A stretch of 64,000 nt of DNA from an uncultured Methanosarcinales archaeon. Lineage in GTDB: Archaea; Nanobdellota; Nanobdellia; Woesearchaeales; CAYPCY01. Of the stretch, positions 24,410 to 62,866 are shown in pieces. Location: the NCBI GenBank assembly GCA_964409385.1, contig CAYPCY010000002.1, forward strand, positions 79,941 to 143,940, in the 5' to 3' direction. Below the pieces are notes generated by a model that made no database searches, was not told the origin of the DNA, and worked only from the letters and a program-made list of their open reading frames with translations. Position 1 is the stretch's first letter, and each line of letters begins with the position of its first letter. The position numbers were made by a program, and so were the translations under genes.

Positions 24410-24450
24410 ATAGTAACTTTTTTAAATTGATTATTGTTCTAATTTTTAAT

Positions 24451-24525
24451 AGCGGGATGGGGCAGGCAGGAGTGCCCGTCGGGCTCATAACCCGGAGGTC
24501 GAAGGTTCAAATCCTTCTCCCGCTA
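24451..24525 (+). tRNA. Initiator tRNA-Met (CAU)
   Basis: Cloverleaf folded by hand. A1:U72 with discriminator A73. Three G-C pairs closing the anticodon stem (TCGGG/CCCGG). Loop CTCATAA. T-arm GAAGG-TTCAAAT-CCTTC. TATA-like tttaaatt about 25 nt upstream. Confidence 0.85.
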
Positions 24526-24635
24526 TCCTTTTCAAAGGATAGAACCCAAAGTATGTGTTTCCCTACGGTCAAGCACATTATTTTATAGTACTATCAAGTT
24601 GTTTTTGCGAGATATTTTTCATTTTATTCAAGCCC

Positions 24636-37530: not shown

Positions 37531-37567
37531 GAAAGTATTAAATAATTAATTTCTCTTTTCTTTGATT

Positions 37568-38713
37568 ATGGATTTTAAAGACGATATTAATTCTGCCTGT
37601 AAGGCTTTAAAGATTAATGCAGTTTGTATAATTGGTGGTTCTTTTGCTAAAGGAACTAATTTAGATGATGATTTTGATATTGATTTCTTCCTAAAATTTT
37701 CTAAAAAATACAAGAATGAAGAAATTTCAAACTTGACAGAGAAAGTTCTAAAAAAATCTAAAATAAAATACTTAAGAATTCATGGTAGTAGAGATTATTT
37801 TCATTTTGAAAGAGAGACTAAGCATTATGAGGTAGTTCCAGTTTTTAATATTAAGAAACCTTCTGAAGCAATTAATATTACTGATGTTTCTCCATTACAT
37901 GTTGATTATGTTAAGAAAAAACTAAAAAAACCAGGTGATGTAAAACTTGTCAAGAGATTCTGCAAGGCTGGAAGAGTTTATGGAGCTGAATCTTATATTA
38001 ATGGATTTTCAGGTCATGTTATTGAATTATTAATAATTCATTATGGAAGTTTTAAGAATTTATTAAAGAAAGCTACTTCTTGGAATCCTAAAGTTATTAT
38101 TGATATTGAAAAAAAGGTTAAAAATCCATTAGTAAACTTGAATTCATCTAAAACAATAGGTCCTTTAATACTTCTTGATCCAGTTCAACCTGCAAGGAAT
38201 GCTGCTGCTTCATTGTCTTTGGAAAAATTCAATAAATTTAAGGATTTGGCTAATAATTATTTAAAGAAACCTTCTAACTCTTTTTTTAAGAAGAAAAAAT
38301 TAGATTTTTCTAAATTTAAGAAAAATAATCCTGCTTTGAAAATAGTTTTAAAACCTGTTGATTCTAGTAAGGACATTTCCGGAACTAAAGCATTCAAAGC
38401 ACTAAAATTTTTATTAAGATGTTTAGAAGAGAATAATTTTAAGATTAATTATGATTGGGAGTTTGATAAGAAGTTCATTATTTTTATTTCTGGAAAGTTA
38501 AAGTCTGATACTGTTATTGTTATTGGTCCACCCTTAAATAAAAAGGAGGATTGTAATAAATTTTTGAAGAAGAGAAAAAACACTTATAAAAAAAGTGGTA
38601 GGTTATTTTCTAAGGAGAAAGTCAAATTTAAAACTTTGAAATCTTGCTTAAATTTTTATTTGAAAGATTCTTATGTAACTTCTAGGATTAAGAGGGTTGA
38701 GAGTGTTATCTAG
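37568..38713 (+). CDS. cca: CCA-adding enzyme (class I archaeal nucleotidyltransferase)
   Basis: GGSFAKGTNLDDDFDIDFF resembles the archaeal Cca GSxARGTxL..SDIDxF Pol-beta NTase signature. At 382 aa it is on the short side. Confidence 0.55.
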   Translation: MDFKDDINSACKALKINAVCIIGGSFAKGTNLDDDFDIDFFLKFSKKYKNEEISNLTEKVLKKSKIKYLRIHGSRDYFHFERETKHYEVVPVFNIKKPSEAINITDVSPLHVDYVKKKLKKPGDVKLVKRFCKAGRVYGAESYINGFSGHVIELLIIHYGSFKNLLKKATSWNPKVIIDIEKKVKNPLVNLNSSKTIGPLILLDPVQPARNAAASLSLEKFNKFKDLANNYLKKPSNSFFKKKKLDFSKFKKNNPALKIVLKPVDSSKDISGTKAFKALKFLLRCLEENNFKINYDWEFDKKFIIFISGKLKSDTVIVIGPPLNKKEDCNKFLKKRKNTYKKSGRLFSKEKVKFKTLKSCLNFYLKDSYVTSRIKRVESVI

Positions 38714-53907: not shown

Positions 53908-54594
53908 ATGGCAGATCTTAAATCATGGATTGATGAACAAAAAGCGAAGGGTTTTACTGAAGATCAATTAAAGGAACATCTTAAAAAGAATGGTTATGAT
54001 GATGCTAAGATTAATGAAGCGTTCACTCCAGAACCTCCAAGTCCTCAATTAAGTACTGCTGAACAACCAACTCCAAATCCTGTTCCTGAACAAACAACAA
54101 TTCCTGAAGGTTCTTTACCTAAAAAATCAAAATCTATAAATTTTATTATTATTGGTGTTATTGCAGTTTTAGCAATTGCATTCATTGTTTATTTGAACAT
54201 GGGTCCTACTAATTGTCCTGATGAGGCTTGTTTTACAGAAAATTTGAAAAAGTGTGAAAAGGCAGTTTTTGTTTCTGAAGGGAATGATGGAAAGATAAGA
54301 CAAACAATTACTAGTGGTAGAAGTTTAGACGAGCAAGGTAATATTGAGTGGTGTAATGTTAAGACTGAAGTTCTCACATCACCAATTCAGGAAGTTGTTG
54401 GTTTGAGTATGGTTTGTAAGATGCCTATTAGTAGTATTTCTATTCCTGAATGTAATGGTGAATTGTGGGAGTACACTCAAGCTCAAATGCAGGCGGCATT
54501 GGATGCCATGGGTGATTTAATAAGTAATACTACAAGTGGGGGAATGCCTGATGTTGATTTACCTGATGGTTTTCCAAGCCTTGACTTTCCATAA
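53908..54594 (+). CDS. Membrane-anchored hypothetical protein with Cys-rich extracytoplasmic domain
   Basis: Cytoplasmic N-domain, Pro-rich linker, one TM helix, C-domain with 8 Cys. Confidence 0.45.
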   Translation: MADLKSWIDEQKAKGFTEDQLKEHLKKNGYDDAKINEAFTPEPPSPQLSTAEQPTPNPVPEQTTIPEGSLPKKSKSINFIIIGVIAVLAIAFIVYLNMGPTNCPDEACFTENLKKCEKAVFVSEGNDGKIRQTITSGRSLDEQGNIEWCNVKTEVLTSPIQEVVGLSMVCKMPISSISIPECNGELWEYTQAQMQAALDAMGDLISNTTSGGMPDVDLPDGFPSLDFP

Positions 54595-55332
54595 CCAGTA
54601 AATACTTATTATTATCATTATTAGATTTAGCCATTGTCCAACTCCTAAATTAAAATAAAGCGTTTCTTCTTTGTAAAAGTCTATTATGAACCTTCCTAGA
54701 GCGTATAAGAAAACAAATGAATAAAACACAACTCCTGGCTTTAATTTCTTAAATAAATAAAGAGGTAGTAAAATAACAAACACAGTAAGATTCTTTAACG
54801 AAGCATAAAGTTGGTATGCGTGTCTGTAAACTAATTCGCCATTGGAAGTTTCATTATTGAAATTAACTCCTAAGGAAGAATCAGTAATTTTGCCAACTAA
54901 TTCTGAATTAATATAATTTGCAATTCTTCCTAGGAACAAGAAGAAGCTTAAGGGCAGCATTAACAAATCGGCTAATTTATAGAAATTAATTTGTTCCTTC
55001 TTACAAAAGAAGTATGAATAAACAACCCCGCCTAATAAACCACCGTGAAAACTAAGGCCTCCCTTCCATATTTTAATTATTTCTATTGGATTACTTAAGT
55101 AGTATCCTGGACTCCATACTAAAACTTCAAAAATTCTAGCTCCTAAAATACTAAAGACCATCACATAAAAAATATAATCATCTATCTTCCCTACAGGAAA
55201 TTTCATCTTACGACTTAATTTCTTAATTAGATAATAACTAAATAAGAAACCGATTAAATAAACTAGTCCGTAATACCTAATCTGCAATCCTAGAATTTCA
55301 AAAGCGACAGGATCTATATTGTTGATGAACAT
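54559..55332 (-). CDS. lgt: Prolipoprotein diacylglyceryl transferase (bacterial type)
   Basis: Aligns along its full length with E. coli Lgt: DPVAFEILG..YYGLVYLIGFLF; signature WKGGLSFHGGLLGGVV; GRIANYINSELVGK; RHAYQLYAS; LYALGRFIIDFYKE. Confidence 0.8.
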   Translation of the reverse strand: MFINNIDPVAFEILGLQIRYYGLVYLIGFLFSYYLIKKLSRKMKFPVGKIDDYIFYVMVFSILGARIFEVLVWSPGYYLSNPIEIIKIWKGGLSFHGGLLGGVVYSYFFCKKEQINFYKLADLLMLPLSFFLFLGRIANYINSELVGKITDSSLGVNFNNETSNGELVYRHAYQLYASLKNLTVFVILLPLYLFKKLKPGVVFYSFVFLYALGRFIIDFYKEETLYFNLGVGQWLNLIMIIISIYWLWKVKAWKTIR

Positions 55333-55417
55333 ATAAATTAAAAAAGCAATTAATTATTTAATATTATCGCAACCTTAATATACTTCTTATAACAACTTTT
55401 AACTAAAGGGGTGTATT

Positions 55418-59835: not shown

Positions 59836-60111
59836 ATGAAAAGAAAAACTATAAAAGTAAGTAGATACATAGATATACTAAATAAACTTGAAAAACAGGT
59901 TTTTATAACTCCTCACGCTATAAAACAAGCTAGAAAAAGAAATATTTTTCCTAACATGATATTTGCAACAATGTGCGGAGGAAGAATAAAAAATTATGGC
60001 AAGAATTATTTGAAAATAAATAAGAGATACAAACAAGGAATAGTAACTTGTGTTTGTGAAAAAGTTAATGAAAATATAATAATAAAAACTGTGACTTGGA
60101 GGAAATTATAA
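59836..60111 (+). CDS. DUF4258-like putative toxin (second copy)
   Basis: ITPHAIKQARKRNIFPNMI resembles the 49836 gene and the DUF4258 core; A-ending codon usage. Confidence 0.45.
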   Translation: MKRKTIKVSRYIDILNKLEKQVFITPHAIKQARKRNIFPNMIFATMCGGRIKNYGKNYLKINKRYKQGIVTCVCEKVNENIIIKTVTWRKL

Positions 60112-60112
60112 A

Positions 60113-60418
60113 ATGAAATGTCCATATTGCAACGGAATAATGAAAAAGTCAAGTGATAAAATTAAAGAAGATAATATTATTTTTGAAATTCATAAATGTG
60201 AAGAATGCAAAGAAGAAATTTTAGATATGAACCAATTAAAAAAACTAGCAAAAAAATATAGAACTTTAAAATTAGCTAGAGAAGTTACTTTTTCACAATG
60301 GGGAAATTCGCTTGCAGTTAGAGTTTCTAAACAATTAACTAATGATCTTAATATAAAACAAGGTGATAAGGGAATTATATACAAGGAAGGAGAAAGTTTG
60401 AAAATAATTAAAGCTTGA
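60113..60418 (+). CDS. Zinc-ribbon + SpoVT/AbrB-like (MazE-type) putative antitoxin
   Basis: CPYCNG...CEEC ribbon, then swapped-hairpin segment SQWGNSLAVRVSKQLTNDLNIKQGDK. Confidence 0.5.
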   Translation: MKCPYCNGIMKKSSDKIKEDNIIFEIHKCEECKEEILDMNQLKKLAKKYRTLKLAREVTFSQWGNSLAVRVSKQLTNDLNIKQGDKGIIYKEGESLKIIKA

Positions 60419-60458: not shown

Positions 60459-60911
60459 ATGAGAAAAGTAAGTACTGACATTCCATTGAGTGAGATTACT
60501 TTGAGAAAGTATGAACCTCCTTCAAATCTTGAAGAGAGAGAACTAATAAAAAAATTATGTTTGTCTATTGGTTTATTACAACCTGGAGATTCCAGAGATG
60601 TAATTGTAGACATTTTGCACGTTCTAATTTCTTCTAAGGAATTAACAACTAAGGAGATTGAAAGATTAACTATTGAGAATCGAGAAAAGTATAATTTGCC
60701 TATTTTAGGAGTTGCACCTTCTAATGTTAGAAGGCAATTATTAAGACTGAAGGATTCTTTCCTGATTGAAAAATTCAATAACCAATATCGTTTTAGGGAA
60801 AACCAATCCTTAGATGAAATATTCAATGAACATATTGAACAGTATTTCTTAAAATCAATAATTTCTAGAGTGAAAGAGCATGTTTCTGAAGTTGAAAAGT
60901 TAAGAAAATGA
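60459..60911 (+). CDS. Hypothetical protein, possible winged helix
   Basis: Chosen over the overlapping minus-strand ORF because its stop overlaps the start of the downstream mtq2-like gene. Confidence 0.4.
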   Translation: MRKVSTDIPLSEITLRKYEPPSNLEERELIKKLCLSIGLLQPGDSRDVIVDILHVLISSKELTTKEIERLTIENREKYNLPILGVAPSNVRRQLLRLKDSFLIEKFNNQYRFRENQSLDEIFNEHIEQYFLKSIISRVKEHVSEVEKLRK

Positions 60912-61948
60912 TGTACGAACCTTGTGAAGATTCTTTCCTTCTTCAAAAGTCAGTAAGGAAATATTCCGGAAGTAAAGCTTTAGACATGGGTACTGGTTCT
61001 GGAATTATTGCAAAAACTTTGGACAAGCATTTTAAGAGGGTTGTTGGTGTTGATATTAATCCTGAAGCCATTAAATATTGTAAAAGTAAATACGAAGGTA
61101 TAACTTTCAAAAATTCTAATTTATTCTCTAATGTTATTGGAAAGTTTGATTTAATAAGTTTTAATGCTCCCTACCTGCCTAATGACCCTAGAGTTAAAGA
61201 TATTGCTTTAGATGGTGGTAAGAAAGGTAATGAGTTAATAATCAAATTCTTAAAAAAAGCAATTCATTTTCTTAAGAATGATGGAAAAATAATTTTGTTA
61301 TTTAGTTCATTATCTCATCCAAGAAATATTTTTGAAACAGCAGATAATCTTTTTCTAAAATATAAATTATTAAATTCTGAAAAGTTAGATTTTGAAGAAT
61401 TATTTGTTTACGAGTTTTCATCAAAGATTATTGGGAAGGGAAAGAGAGGATTAGTTTATCAAGAAGGAGATTATGCTGTTAAAATAATTAATTCTAAAAC
61501 AGACACTTTAAAATTTGAAGCGGACATTCTAAAAAAAATTAATAAGAAAGGAATAGGTCCCAAATTATATTCTTTCAAGAATAATAAGTTAAAGATCGAA
61601 TTAGTAAAAGGAGAAAGAATTTTAGATTTCTTAAAGAATGCCACTAAACAAAAGAAAGTAAAGATGTTAAAAGAAGTTTTTAGGCAATTGAGAATTCTTG
61701 ACTTAATGAATATTAACAAGTCTGAAATGAAAAATCCTTACAAGCATATTATAATTGGTAAAATGCCTGTATTGATAGATTTTGAAAGGGCTCGTTATTC
61801 AGAAAATCCGCAAAATATTACTCAATTCTGTAGTTTTTTAGAAAATAACAAAATAGTTTCCTTCAAGGATCTTCCAAAAAACTACAAGAAAAATCCGTCT
61901 GAAGAAAACTTTAAAAAATTAGAATTTTCTCTTCTTGCTACTGATTAA
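60908..61948 (+). CDS. Fusion protein: Mtq2/PrmC-type glutamine N5-methyltransferase + Bud32/RIO-like atypical kinase-like domain
   Basis: N-domain YEPCEDSFL, LDMGTGSG, FNAPYLP, LDGGKKG match yeast Mtq2 (YEPAEDSFL, FNPPYVP, LLGGKDG). C-domain has Gly-rich loop GKGKRGLVY, Lys strand YAVKI and LIDFERA in place of DFG, but no canonical HGDL catalytic loop. Confidence 0.6.
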   Translation: MMYEPCEDSFLLQKSVRKYSGSKALDMGTGSGIIAKTLDKHFKRVVGVDINPEAIKYCKSKYEGITFKNSNLFSNVIGKFDLISFNAPYLPNDPRVKDIALDGGKKGNELIIKFLKKAIHFLKNDGKIILLFSSLSHPRNIFETADNLFLKYKLLNSEKLDFEELFVYEFSSKIIGKGKRGLVYQEGDYAVKIINSKTDTLKFEADILKKINKKGIGPKLYSFKNNKLKIELVKGERILDFLKNATKQKKVKMLKEVFRQLRILDLMNINKSEMKNPYKHIIIGKMPVLIDFERARYSENPQNITQFCSFLENNKIVSFKDLPKNYKKNPSEENFKKLEFSLLATD

Positions 61949-62866
61949 TTCTTCTTCCAAAGATAATTCTATTAACAGTTCTTTATACCTGTTTCTTATG
62001 GTGACTTCTGTAACTCCTGCAACATCAGCGACTTCTCTTTGCGTTCTTTTTTCTCCATTGATTAATGCTGCAACATATAATGAAGCTGCAGCAATTCCTG
62101 TAGGTCCTCTTCCTGAAGTTAATTCTGCTTCTTGACAGAGTTCAATAATCTCTATTGATTTTGATTGGGTTTCAGGACTTAATTCTAGGCTTGAAGAGAA
62201 TCTTGGAATGTAATCTACTGGATTACTAGGTAGTACTGTAACTTGTAATTCCCTAGTTATGAACCTGTAGGTTCTTCCAATTTCTTTCTTTTCAATACCT
62301 GAAACTTCTCCCAATTCATCTAATGTTCTTGGAATATCATGTCTTCTACAAGCAGCGTATAAGGAGCCTGTAACTACTGATTCCATACTTCTTCCCCTAA
62401 CTAGGCCTTTCTGTACTGCCATAGTGTAAATCCTTGCTGCTTCTTCCTCTACTGATTTAGGAAGTTTTAGGCAGGATGATATTCTTTTTAATTCTGCAAG
62501 TGCTAATTTCAAGTTTCTTTCTATAGCTGTTGATATTCTGTACTGCCACTTTCTTAATCTGAAGAATTTGTTTTTGTCTTTTCCTCTAAGTCCGTAAAGG
62601 TCTGCTTTTCTTCCAACTTCAGTTCCTAGTCCTTGGTCGTATTGTGTGTAGCTCATTGGAGCTCCAGTTCTTCTTCTTTTATCTGCAGTTTCCGAATCGA
62701 AACCTCTGAATCTATCGTCAGAATCAACCATTTTATCTTCAAGAACTAATCCGCATTCTTTACAGATAACTTCGCCACGTTCATTATTCCAAGAAAGATC
62801 TTCGCCCTTACATTCAGGACACTGCTTTAACATAGTCTGATACATAATAACACCCCGTAACCTCAC
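61919..62866 (-). CDS. tfb: Transcription initiation factor IIB
   Basis: N-terminal zinc ribbon CPECKGEDLSWNNERGEVICKECG; two cyclin-fold repeats. Confidence 0.9.
   Translation of the reverse strand: MRLRGVIMYQTMLKQCPECKGEDLSWNNERGEVICKECGLVLEDKMVDSDDRFRGFDSETADKRRRTGAPMSYTQYDQGLGTEVGRKADLYGLRGKDKNKFFRLRKWQYRISTAIERNLKLALAELKRISSCLKLPKSVEEEAARIYTMAVQKGLVRGRSMESVVTGSLYAACRRHDIPRTLDELGEVSGIEKKEIGRTYRFITRELQVTVLPSNPVDYIPRFSSSLELSPETQSKSIEIIELCQEAELTSGRGPTGIAAASLYVAALINGEKRTQREVADVAGVTEVTIRNRYKELLIELSLEEELISSKKRKF

Follow-up and report, generated by a model that had tools for sequence, protein, structure and literature searches.

The subject of this work is a single gene in a 64,000-nucleotide stretch of archaeal DNA from contig CAYPCY010000002.1 (the whole stretch is referred to here as the window), which joins two known enzyme families in one polypeptide. 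The N-terminal half of the protein is a HemK2/Mtq2-type class I S-adenosylmethionine (SAM) methyltransferase, and its C-terminal half is a minimal kinase whose relatives are the ArkI/Ark1 (AQ578/COG2112) archaeal RNA kinases, not Bud32 or RIO. This Mtq2-ArkI arrangement is a previously undescribed architecture that is widespread in Woesearchaeota-type DPANN archaea. ArkI, described in 2022, was the first enzyme known to put a stable internal phosphate on RNA, and we consider it reasonably probable that the fusion is a bifunctional enzyme, combining Mtq2 with an ArkI-type RNA 2'-OH kinase, whose two substrates we infer. The coordinates of the gene, its motifs and its neighbours are collected in Table 1.

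The fusion is a genuine gene

A preliminary description of the sequence had taken both halves to belong to a single fused gene, and the open reading frame (ORF) is indeed uninterrupted, with the domain junction (...LFVYEFSSKIIGKGKRG...) lying in one continuous frame that links the two. Its ATG is overlapped by the stop codon of an upstream ORF of 150 amino acids (AAAATGATG). An identical 346-residue protein was called on three contigs of two JGI metagenomes and on one 208-kb NCBI/ENA contig, whilst proteins of 345-346 residues that are 82-86% identical are present in other sources. The 120 best of 931 homologs cover 82-100% of the query, nearly all of them at least 89%. Given the identical protein on independent contigs and these near-full-length homologs, the fusion is not an artefact of assembly or sequencing. 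Both halves are also recognised far beyond chance, the first by the model TIGR00537 (E 6.8e-39) and the second by a single-sequence phmmer search of the PDB, which matches it over the whole length to the 174-residue protein of entries 8yv4 and 8yv5 (E 2.5e-16). The named homologs of the fusion protein belong to the Woesearchaeota or Nanoarchaeota, and the host is a Woesearchaeota-type (DPANN) archaeon.

The N-terminal half belongs to the Mtq2/HemK2 family

The assignment of the N-terminal half to Mtq2, already made in the preliminary description, is borne out by profile and structure alike. This half scores 133.4 bits with the curated HemK2/MTQ2 model TIGR00537, above its cut-off of 87, falls just below the cut-off of NF011529 (158.2 against 162 bits) and is matched by Pfam MTS. 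When searched with Foldseek, the corresponding part of the AlphaFold model fits best on the Encephalitozoon cuniculi Mtq2-Trm112 structure (3q87_B, TMt 0.87) and also superposes on human N6AMT1/HemK2/KMT9-TRMT112 (TMt 0.71-0.79; 6kmr_B 0.76). Residue conservation, which throughout this work was taken from an alignment of 121 fusion proteins with an overall identity of only about 40%, is high at the YEPxEDSFL motif, at the glycines of motif I and in motif IV (Table 1), and D49, the acidic residue after beta2, is 100% conserved. The motifs quoted in the preliminary description were all found, namely YEPCEDSFL and FNAPYLP (residues 85-91) in this half and GKGKRG, YAVKI (189-193, containing K192) and LIDFERA (289-295) in the other.

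The fusion thus has in common with the Mtq2/HemK2/N6AMT1(KMT9)-Trm112 proteins (3q87, 6kmr, 6h1d; Haloferax volcanii Mtq2, PMC6144793) the fold, the SAM motifs, a motif of the (N/D)PPY type and the YEPxED motif. It differs from them in its added C-terminal kinase domain, in the N-A-P-Y form of motif IV seen in the window lineage and in having no Trm112 gene within the window. The H. volcanii enzyme methylates the glutamine of the GGQ motif in aRF1, and Mtq2 orthologs have been reported from all archaeal phyla (PMC6144793), so that the N-terminal half is most simply the organism's own Mtq2. Neither a second copy of Mtq2 or ArkI nor an aRF1 gene was found in the window. A 51-residue Trm112 is encoded 1.4-5 kb from the fusion in four related loci (L008, L009, L035 and L042); the lone "Trm112" match in the window itself was rejected, being the zinc ribbon of TFIIB.

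The C-terminal half is an ArkI/Ark1-type kinase

The highly confident model of the C-terminal domain (AlphaFold2; pLDDT 95.7, pTM 0.91) is a minimal two-lobe kinase, with five N-lobe strands and helix alphaC followed by a short helical C-lobe, and without an activation loop or APE motif (subdomains VIII and X). The full-length model has a pLDDT of 93.7 and a pTM of 0.80. In Foldseek searches of the PDB the top rank is taken by 8yv5 and 8yv4 (TM 0.84/0.86, rmsd about 2 A), entries entitled "G. acetivorans RNA kinase Ark1", one of which is in complex with ATP. Thermococcus kodakarensis ArkI (TkArkI, 7vnx) comes second (TM 0.73/0.61), and RIO1, RIO2 and Bud32 come third (TM 0.57-0.69, E about 1e-6), the RIO proteins with an rmsd of 4-8 A and Bud32 with a TM of 0.64.

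The same order emerges from sequence profiles. With a profile built from 28 fusion C-domains and eight stand-alone Archaeoglobales proteins, the PDB returned 8yv4 at E 2.3e-50 and TkArkI at E 1e-22, the latter alignment running from profile positions 6-204 against ArkI residues 22-218 and so spanning the whole domain; canonical protein kinases came next (E 1e-7), and neither Bud32 nor RIO was among the top 60 matches. Pfam gave no significant match for the C-terminal half, with no hit to Pkinase, RIO1 or Kdo and none to RIO1 even at E 10, and the NCBIfam Bud32 models reached only 13-25 bits against cut-offs of 174-372 (best 24.6 bits, cut-off 246, E 1.7e-5).

These results bear directly on the preliminary description, which had seen the layout of a minimal protein kinase here, had noted that the HGDL catalytic loop was missing and had assigned the domain to Bud32/RIO. 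The layout stands, since the predicted fold is bilobal and carries the Gly-rich loop, the beta3 lysine and the DFG-like aspartate, and there is indeed no HGD or HRD triplet. The family assignment does not stand: the structure prediction and Foldseek comparison that the description had proposed put ArkI/Ark1 at the top, ArkI/Ark1 is closer by sequence also, and Bud32 and RIO appear solely as distant superfamily matches. Of the profile searches proposed alongside, those for Pkinase, RIO1 and Kdo came back empty, and that for Bud32 yielded nothing above threshold.

ArkI (COG2112, formerly the AQ578 family) writes 2'-phosphouridine at position 47 of tRNA (PMC9095486). The window domain shares with TkArkI (Ohira et al. 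2022, PMC9095486) and with Geoglobus acetivorans Ark1 (GaArk1) a minimal bilobal fold like that of eukaryotic protein kinases (ePK), the lack of an activation segment, a K-G P-loop, the beta3 Lys and alphaC Glu, a "DFE" metal loop, a K-H pair at the end of the catalytic loop, and the N-x-T and Y-K-(K/R) motifs; at about 175 residues it is also of the size of GaArk1. In contrast to these proteins, it is covalently fused to Mtq2, is only 22-29% identical to the solved structures and is found here in a DPANN archaeon that is probably not thermophilic. Bud32 (of KEOPS) and RIO1/RIO2 belong to the same superfamily of small atypical kinases without an activation segment and resemble the domain distantly (TM about 0.6), whereas the window domain has neither an HGD...N loop nor the RIO-specific N-terminal winged helix-turn-helix or flexible loop, and there is no Kae1 nearby.

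Only one solved protein in the Foldseek lists matched both halves, namely WbdD, which acts in O-antigen chain termination in Escherichia coli O9a (4azs, 4ax8) and, like the fusion, places a class I methyltransferase before an ePK-like kinase in a single chain. The domain arrangement of WbdD is nevertheless not superposable on that of the fusion (rmsd about 13 A, TM 0.3-0.4), and each of its domains belongs to a subfamily unrelated to the one seen here. The substrate of WbdD is a sugar phosphate, which is first phosphorylated and then methylated, and nothing in the fusion points to such chemistry.

The lineage of the window (proteins P0001-P0006, 345-352 residues) represents a shortened form compared with most fusion proteins (370-390 residues). 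In the family alignment these proteins lack a helix of about 15-20 residues between the methyltransferase and the kinase P-loop, which corresponds to the N-terminal helix of ArkI, and also an insert of about 12 residues that precedes the Y-K motif in most fusion proteins. With both segments missing, their kinase domain is as small as that of G. acetivorans Ark1.

The active site is conserved with a variant catalytic loop

The absence of the HGD/HRD triplet had led the preliminary description to suggest a pseudokinase. ArkI itself departs from the canonical motifs, with HGQ in place of HRD and DFE in place of DFG, and mutation of K32, G33, K51, E65, H130, Q132, K137, D149, N160, T162 or K201 in TkArkI lowers or abolishes activity, D149 being essential (PMC9095486). 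By profile alignment these positions map to K177-G178, K192, E204, K271, E273, K279, D291, N303, T305 and Y326-K327 of the fusion, and all of the aligned positions are 93-100% conserved. The catalytic loop K271-S-E273-M-K-N-P277-Y-K279-H280 aligns with H130-G-Q132-I-Q-G-G-K137-H138 of TkArkI, the final K-H pair being retained as K279-H280 and H130 and Q132 being replaced by the invariant K271 and E273, so that a glutamate occupies the position of the HRD aspartate and of the ArkI glutamine. GaArk1 shares this K-x-E-M..P.[KR]-H loop, which marks it as a subfamily variant, and the active-site residues stay invariant once the Archaeoglobales proteins are added to the alignment. Since the ATP and metal ligands and the replacement loop are 98-100% conserved in proteins only some 40% identical overall, the C-terminal half does not look like a pseudokinase. 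The closest solved relative was, moreover, crystallised with ATP. We rejected a reading in which "HPD" of 8yv4 serves as the HxD triplet, which would render the corresponding "NPY" of the window protein dead, because the position is variable (Y/V/L/I/F) among the 121 proteins.

Table 1. Location of the fusion gene, its domains and motifs, and other features of the window. Percentages give conservation among the fusion proteins; aa, residue numbers.
Feature	Position	Strand	Evidence or remarks
Mtq2-ArkI fusion ORF, complete	60908..61948	+	uninterrupted, 346 aa plus stop
HemK2/Mtq2-type class I SAM methyltransferase domain (aa 1-172)	60908..61423	+	TIGR00537, NF011529, Pfam MTS, Foldseek
YEPxEDSFL motif, here YEPCEDSFL (aa 3-11)	60914..60940	+	Y3 98%, P5 95%, E7 97%, D8 98%, S9 94%
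SAM-binding motif I, D-M-G-T-G-S-G (aa 26-32)	60983..61003	+	G28 98%, G30 100%, G32 98%
Motif IV, N-A-P-Y (aa 86-89), variant of NPPY substrate-amide/amine binding motif	61163..61174	+	N86 99%, P88 100%, Y89 100%
ArkI/Ark1-type minimal kinase domain (aa 173-346)	61424..61945	+	PDB sequence matches, profile, AlphaFold2, Foldseek
Gly-rich P-loop, G-K-G-K-R-G (aa 176-181)	61433..61450	+	G178 100%, R180 98%, G181 98%; aligns with TkArkI K32-G33
beta3 lysine K192 (equivalent of VAIK Lys, TkArkI K51)	61481..61483	+	100% conserved
alphaC glutamate E204 (TkArkI E65)	61517..61519	+	100% conserved
Variant catalytic loop (aa 271-280)	61718..61747	+	K271, E273, P277 100%; M274, K279 98%; H280 99%
Metal-binding loop, D291-F-E-R294 (ArkI "DFE" for DFG)	61778..61789	+	D291, R294 100%; F292 99%; E293 98%
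Subdomain IX motif, N303-I-T305-Q306-F307	61814..61828	+	N303, Q306 100%; T305 93%; aligns with TkArkI N160, T162
Y326-K-K, counterpart of ArkI alpha7 "YKR" RNA-binding motif	61883..61891	+	Y326 98%; aligns with 8yv4 "EYKK", TkArkI "HYKR"
Upstream 150-aa ORF, no Pfam match	60459..60911	+	homolog upstream in 30/80 related loci
TFIIB gene, convergent, 30-nt overlap with 3' end of fusion	61919..62866	-	in 32/80 related loci, nearly always downstream and convergent
tRNA-Met(CAT), candidate substrate, not part of the gene	24450..24528	+	5-nt variable loop AGGUC (U47-C48)

Kinase and Mtq2 are linked in many DPANN genomes

A relative of the kinase is encoded in 399 GTDB species representatives, and we examined linkage and synteny in the best 80 of these loci, with 6 kb fetched on each side; all 80 are metagenome-assembled genomes of DPANN type. 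The kinase is fused to Mtq2 in 29 of them and lies directly downstream of Mtq2 on the same strand in a further 25 (recounted by hand). Of the remainder, two have Mtq2 within 2.5 kb, 17 are unlinked and seven are cut by the end of the contig, so that, of the 73 informative species, 54 have kinase and Mtq2 fused or tightly adjacent. Where the pair is split, both genes are genuine: the Mtq2 ORF ends in ...FEELYVYKI* and the kinase starts with its own ATG, frequently in an ATGA overlap. One apparent N-terminal extension of 220 residues (L085) was rejected as an artefact of stop-to-stop ORF calling.

An exhaustive hidden Markov model (HMM) search gave 594 cluster representatives at E <= 1e-30. Among the top matches, 79 had the Mtq2-kinase architecture, 54 consisted of the kinase alone and eight were kinase-PF01035; all three domains occur together, as Mtq2-kinase-PF01035, in proteins of 460-470 residues (P0015, P0019 and P0037). 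A rough neighbour-joining tree of the kinase domain groups the DPANN kinases in a single clade, with the Archaeoglobales Ark1 group as its sister, and within the DPANN clade the fused, adjacent and unlinked states are interleaved. This points to repeated fusion and fission inside one orthologous group. No Mtq2 gene was found beside the stand-alone Archaeoglobales homologs, whose contexts are not conserved, and the genes that flank the unlinked kinases (one convergent and about 430 residues long, others for large secreted or small basic proteins), viewed without a Pfam scan, offered no functional clue.

The wider synteny comprises IleRS, the 150-residue ORF, Mtq2 and kinase (fused or separate), PF01035, the convergent TFIIB and Trm112. 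The recurrence of the 150-residue ORF makes it a conserved operon partner. A gene of about 97 residues for PF01035 (the C-terminal, DNA_binding_1 part of MGMT) lies directly 3' of the kinase in 26 of the 80 related loci (for example L008:7131-7427 and L009:7404-7697) and was not found in the window. In proteins of about 295 residues the same domain is joined to the kinase without Mtq2 (P0242, P0257 and P0295). Its active-site cysteine motif, [VI]PCHR[VI], is kept in 35 of 43 copies, the exceptions shown reading TPCHR.

Three genomes carry a GC-rich element of about 100 nt (core GGGGGA[AC]GCCCCAT[AC]CGGGG) between split Mtq2 and kinase genes (L015:5884-5990, L040:5870-5985 and L043:2390-2480), and it recurs 3 kb from a stand-alone kinase gene (L028:9549-9568, minus strand). 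Rfam gave no match for it, and the window does not contain it. Two small hairpins are predicted, with almost no covariation among what are only three sequences, and the element may be a small RNA gene. Outside the DPANN clade, the stand-alone Ark1 homolog of Ferroglobus placidus has a ribosome quality-control gene of the NFACT/RqcH type only 400 bp away (L003:6917-8857), a proximity that is probably coincidental since it is not conserved in Geoglobus or Archaeoglobus veneficus.

Proposed function and alternatives

If the two halves act as their families do, the N-terminal domain would bind SAM through its GxGxG motif and D49, and its N-A-P-Y pocket would direct N5-methylation of the GGQ glutamine of aRF1, probably in partnership with a Trm112 encoded elsewhere in the genome. 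In the kinase, ATP would sit between the lobes, held by the Gly-rich loop and the K192-E204 pair, with D291 of the DFER loop coordinating Mg2+, and the loop containing K271, E273, K279 and H280 would catalyse the step in which a ribose 2'-OH receives the gamma-phosphate. As target, U47 of class I tRNAs, which lies in their variable loop, would be the most likely, with the tRNA held by a basic C-lobe that includes N303/T305 and Y326-K-K. Up47 (2'-phosphouridine at position 47) is reported to form in tRNAs that have a 5-nt variable loop with U47-C48 (PMC10622864, PMC10159004), and three of the four class I tRNAs with a 5-nt variable loop that we considered end in U47-C48, namely the tRNA-Met of the window and two of three from related loci.

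The fusion most likely descends from an operon in which mtq2 and arkI were translationally coupled, and would have formed when the stop/start overlap between the two genes was lost. Because the orthologous kinase is fused, adjacent or unlinked depending on the species, the role of the fusion may lie in the co-expression or co-localisation of two separable activities.

Several observations weigh against this bifunctional reading. ArkI has been described as mainly an enzyme of thermophiles, and most of these DPANN archaea are not thermophilic, although Up47 is found in mesophiles too. The sole functional label of the closest relative, 8yv4/8yv5, is its PDB title, and we found no published biochemistry for any member of the clade. 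The catalytic loop is K-x-E rather than the H-G-Q of the characterised ArkI, and TkArkI is only about 22-28% identical, such that substrate specificity may differ. In the methyltransferase half, 90% of the family have proline at position 87 of the NPPY motif and the window lineage has alanine. A search for Trm112 genes, finally, came back empty both for the window and for 10 kb of downstream sequence on the matching contig.

The loop variant and the low identity to TkArkI leave room for an active kinase with a target other than tRNA U47 (aRF1, aRF3/aEF1A, Mtq2 itself or another RNA). In this reading the kinase would be mechanistically coupled to the methyltransferase, with phosphorylation gating GGQ methylation, for example, or the ArkI domain docking the tRNA-shaped aRF1. 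Such coupling would be in keeping with the frequent fusion or tight adjacency to Mtq2 and with the translational coupling of the split genes; there is also almost no linker between the domains, which together with the pTM of the full-length model hints at a fixed arrangement. The glutamate that stands in for the ArkI glutamine means that chemistry or substrate may differ, and in the tree TkArkI stands apart from this clade. We nevertheless think this account unlikely. The kinase does not appear to depend on Mtq2, being unlinked in 17 species, alone in Archaeoglobales without an Mtq2 neighbour and elsewhere fused to PF01035 without Mtq2; the RNA-binding features of ArkI (N-x-T, Y-K-K/R) are conserved, and the depositors name the closest relative an RNA kinase.

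It is very unlikely, in our view, that both domains act on tRNA, with the NPPY methyltransferase being an RNA (m2G/m6A-type) enzyme and the ArkI domain serving it as a tRNA-binding module, as THUMP does in Trm11. The NPPY methyltransferases do include Trm112-dependent tRNA m2G10 enzymes (PMC6144793), the domain joined to this one is drawn from a family of tRNA kinases and the fusion has no other RNA- or protein-binding domain. The N-terminal half, however, passes the curated threshold of the Mtq2 family, finds its best superpositions among Mtq2/HemK2 structures and not among RNA methyltransferases, and conserves the Mtq2-specific YEPxEDS motif; the reported presence of Mtq2 orthologs in all archaeal phyla (PMC6144793) also speaks against such a role.

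Scarcely credible, finally, is the suggestion of the preliminary description that a Bud32/RIO-like pseudokinase, catalysing no phosphotransfer, makes up the C-terminal half and either regulates Mtq2 or serves as its tether to KEOPS or to RIO ribosome-biogenesis machinery, for which the missing HGD/HRD triplet, the weak sub-threshold Bud32 matches and the appearance of RIO1, RIO2 and Bud32 among the Foldseek results could be cited, but against which stand the far better matches to ArkI in sequence (1e-22 to 2e-50) and structure (TM 0.84 against about 0.6), the failure of the Bud32 models to approach their cut-offs and of Pfam Pkinase, RIO1 and Kdo to match at all, a conservation of ligands and catalytic loop not expected of a pseudokinase, and the lack of anything linking the protein to either machinery, with no Kae1 (Peptidase_M22), Bud32 or RIO gene among the window ORFs of at least 250 residues.

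Significance of the Mtq2-ArkI architecture

Taking the bifunctional Mtq2-ArkI enzyme as the favoured reading, its interest lies first in the kinase, which represents a sister clade of ArkI-type kinases in some 400 GTDB species (Woesearchaeota/Nanoarchaeota) with a distinct yet strictly conserved catalytic loop. If this domain is a tRNA kinase, then RNA 2'-phosphorylation ranges more widely than known so far and includes DPANN archaea, and if the two activities are coupled, then tRNA modification would be linked to the maturation of a termination factor. Database labels are also corrected, as such proteins are at present annotated only as methyltransferases or "Ser/Thr kinases". The Mtq2-kinase architecture was mentioned in none of the papers that we searched: literature searches returned no paper on 8YV4, on Geoglobus Ark1 or on an Mtq2-kinase fusion, and the ArkI paper mentions neither DPANN homologs nor fusions.

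A broader proposition would be that RNA 2'-phosphorylation is no speciality of thermophiles at all, being widespread in mostly non-thermophilic DPANN archaea in which the kinase is coupled to Mtq2, often together with an MGMT-like PCHR domain, in a coordinated reaction. We regard this as unlikely in its full form. In such a reaction, GGQ methylation might be gated by the ArkI domain through docking or phosphorylation of the tRNA-shaped aRF1 or of its tRNA partner; alternatively, both domains might modify the same tRNA. If true, either would connect tRNA modification with translation termination in a new way.

The remainder of the window

The window is otherwise ordinary archaeal chromosome of about 31% G+C, with genes for Cdc48, GatD/GatE, TruD, a topoisomerase, SMC, a CCA-adding enzyme, ThrRS, an exosome subunit, IleRS and TFIIB. 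The gene for the archaeal CCA-adding enzyme (tRNA_NucTransf2; 37562-38713, plus strand) lies 22 kb from the fusion and is unlinked to it; in Sulfurisphaera tokodaii, arkI is in one operon with the gene for the CCA-adding enzyme (PMC9095486). A weak tblastn match of the kinase domain (E 0.024) maps to 38129-38311, where the CCA-adding enzyme has its Lys-rich tail, and was treated as chance. On the minus strand, 54562-55353 gives a strong match (PF01790, 210 bits) to prolipoprotein diacylglyceryl transferase (LGT), a typically bacterial enzyme that appears here in an archaeal genome. Between IleRS and the 150-residue ORF, a DUF4258 ORF of 91 residues (59836-60111, plus strand) is followed by a 101-residue zinc-ribbon ORF with a CxxC...CxxC pattern (60113-60418, plus strand). 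This pair is absent from the syntenic locus L009 and looks like a small insertion of the toxin-antitoxin type.

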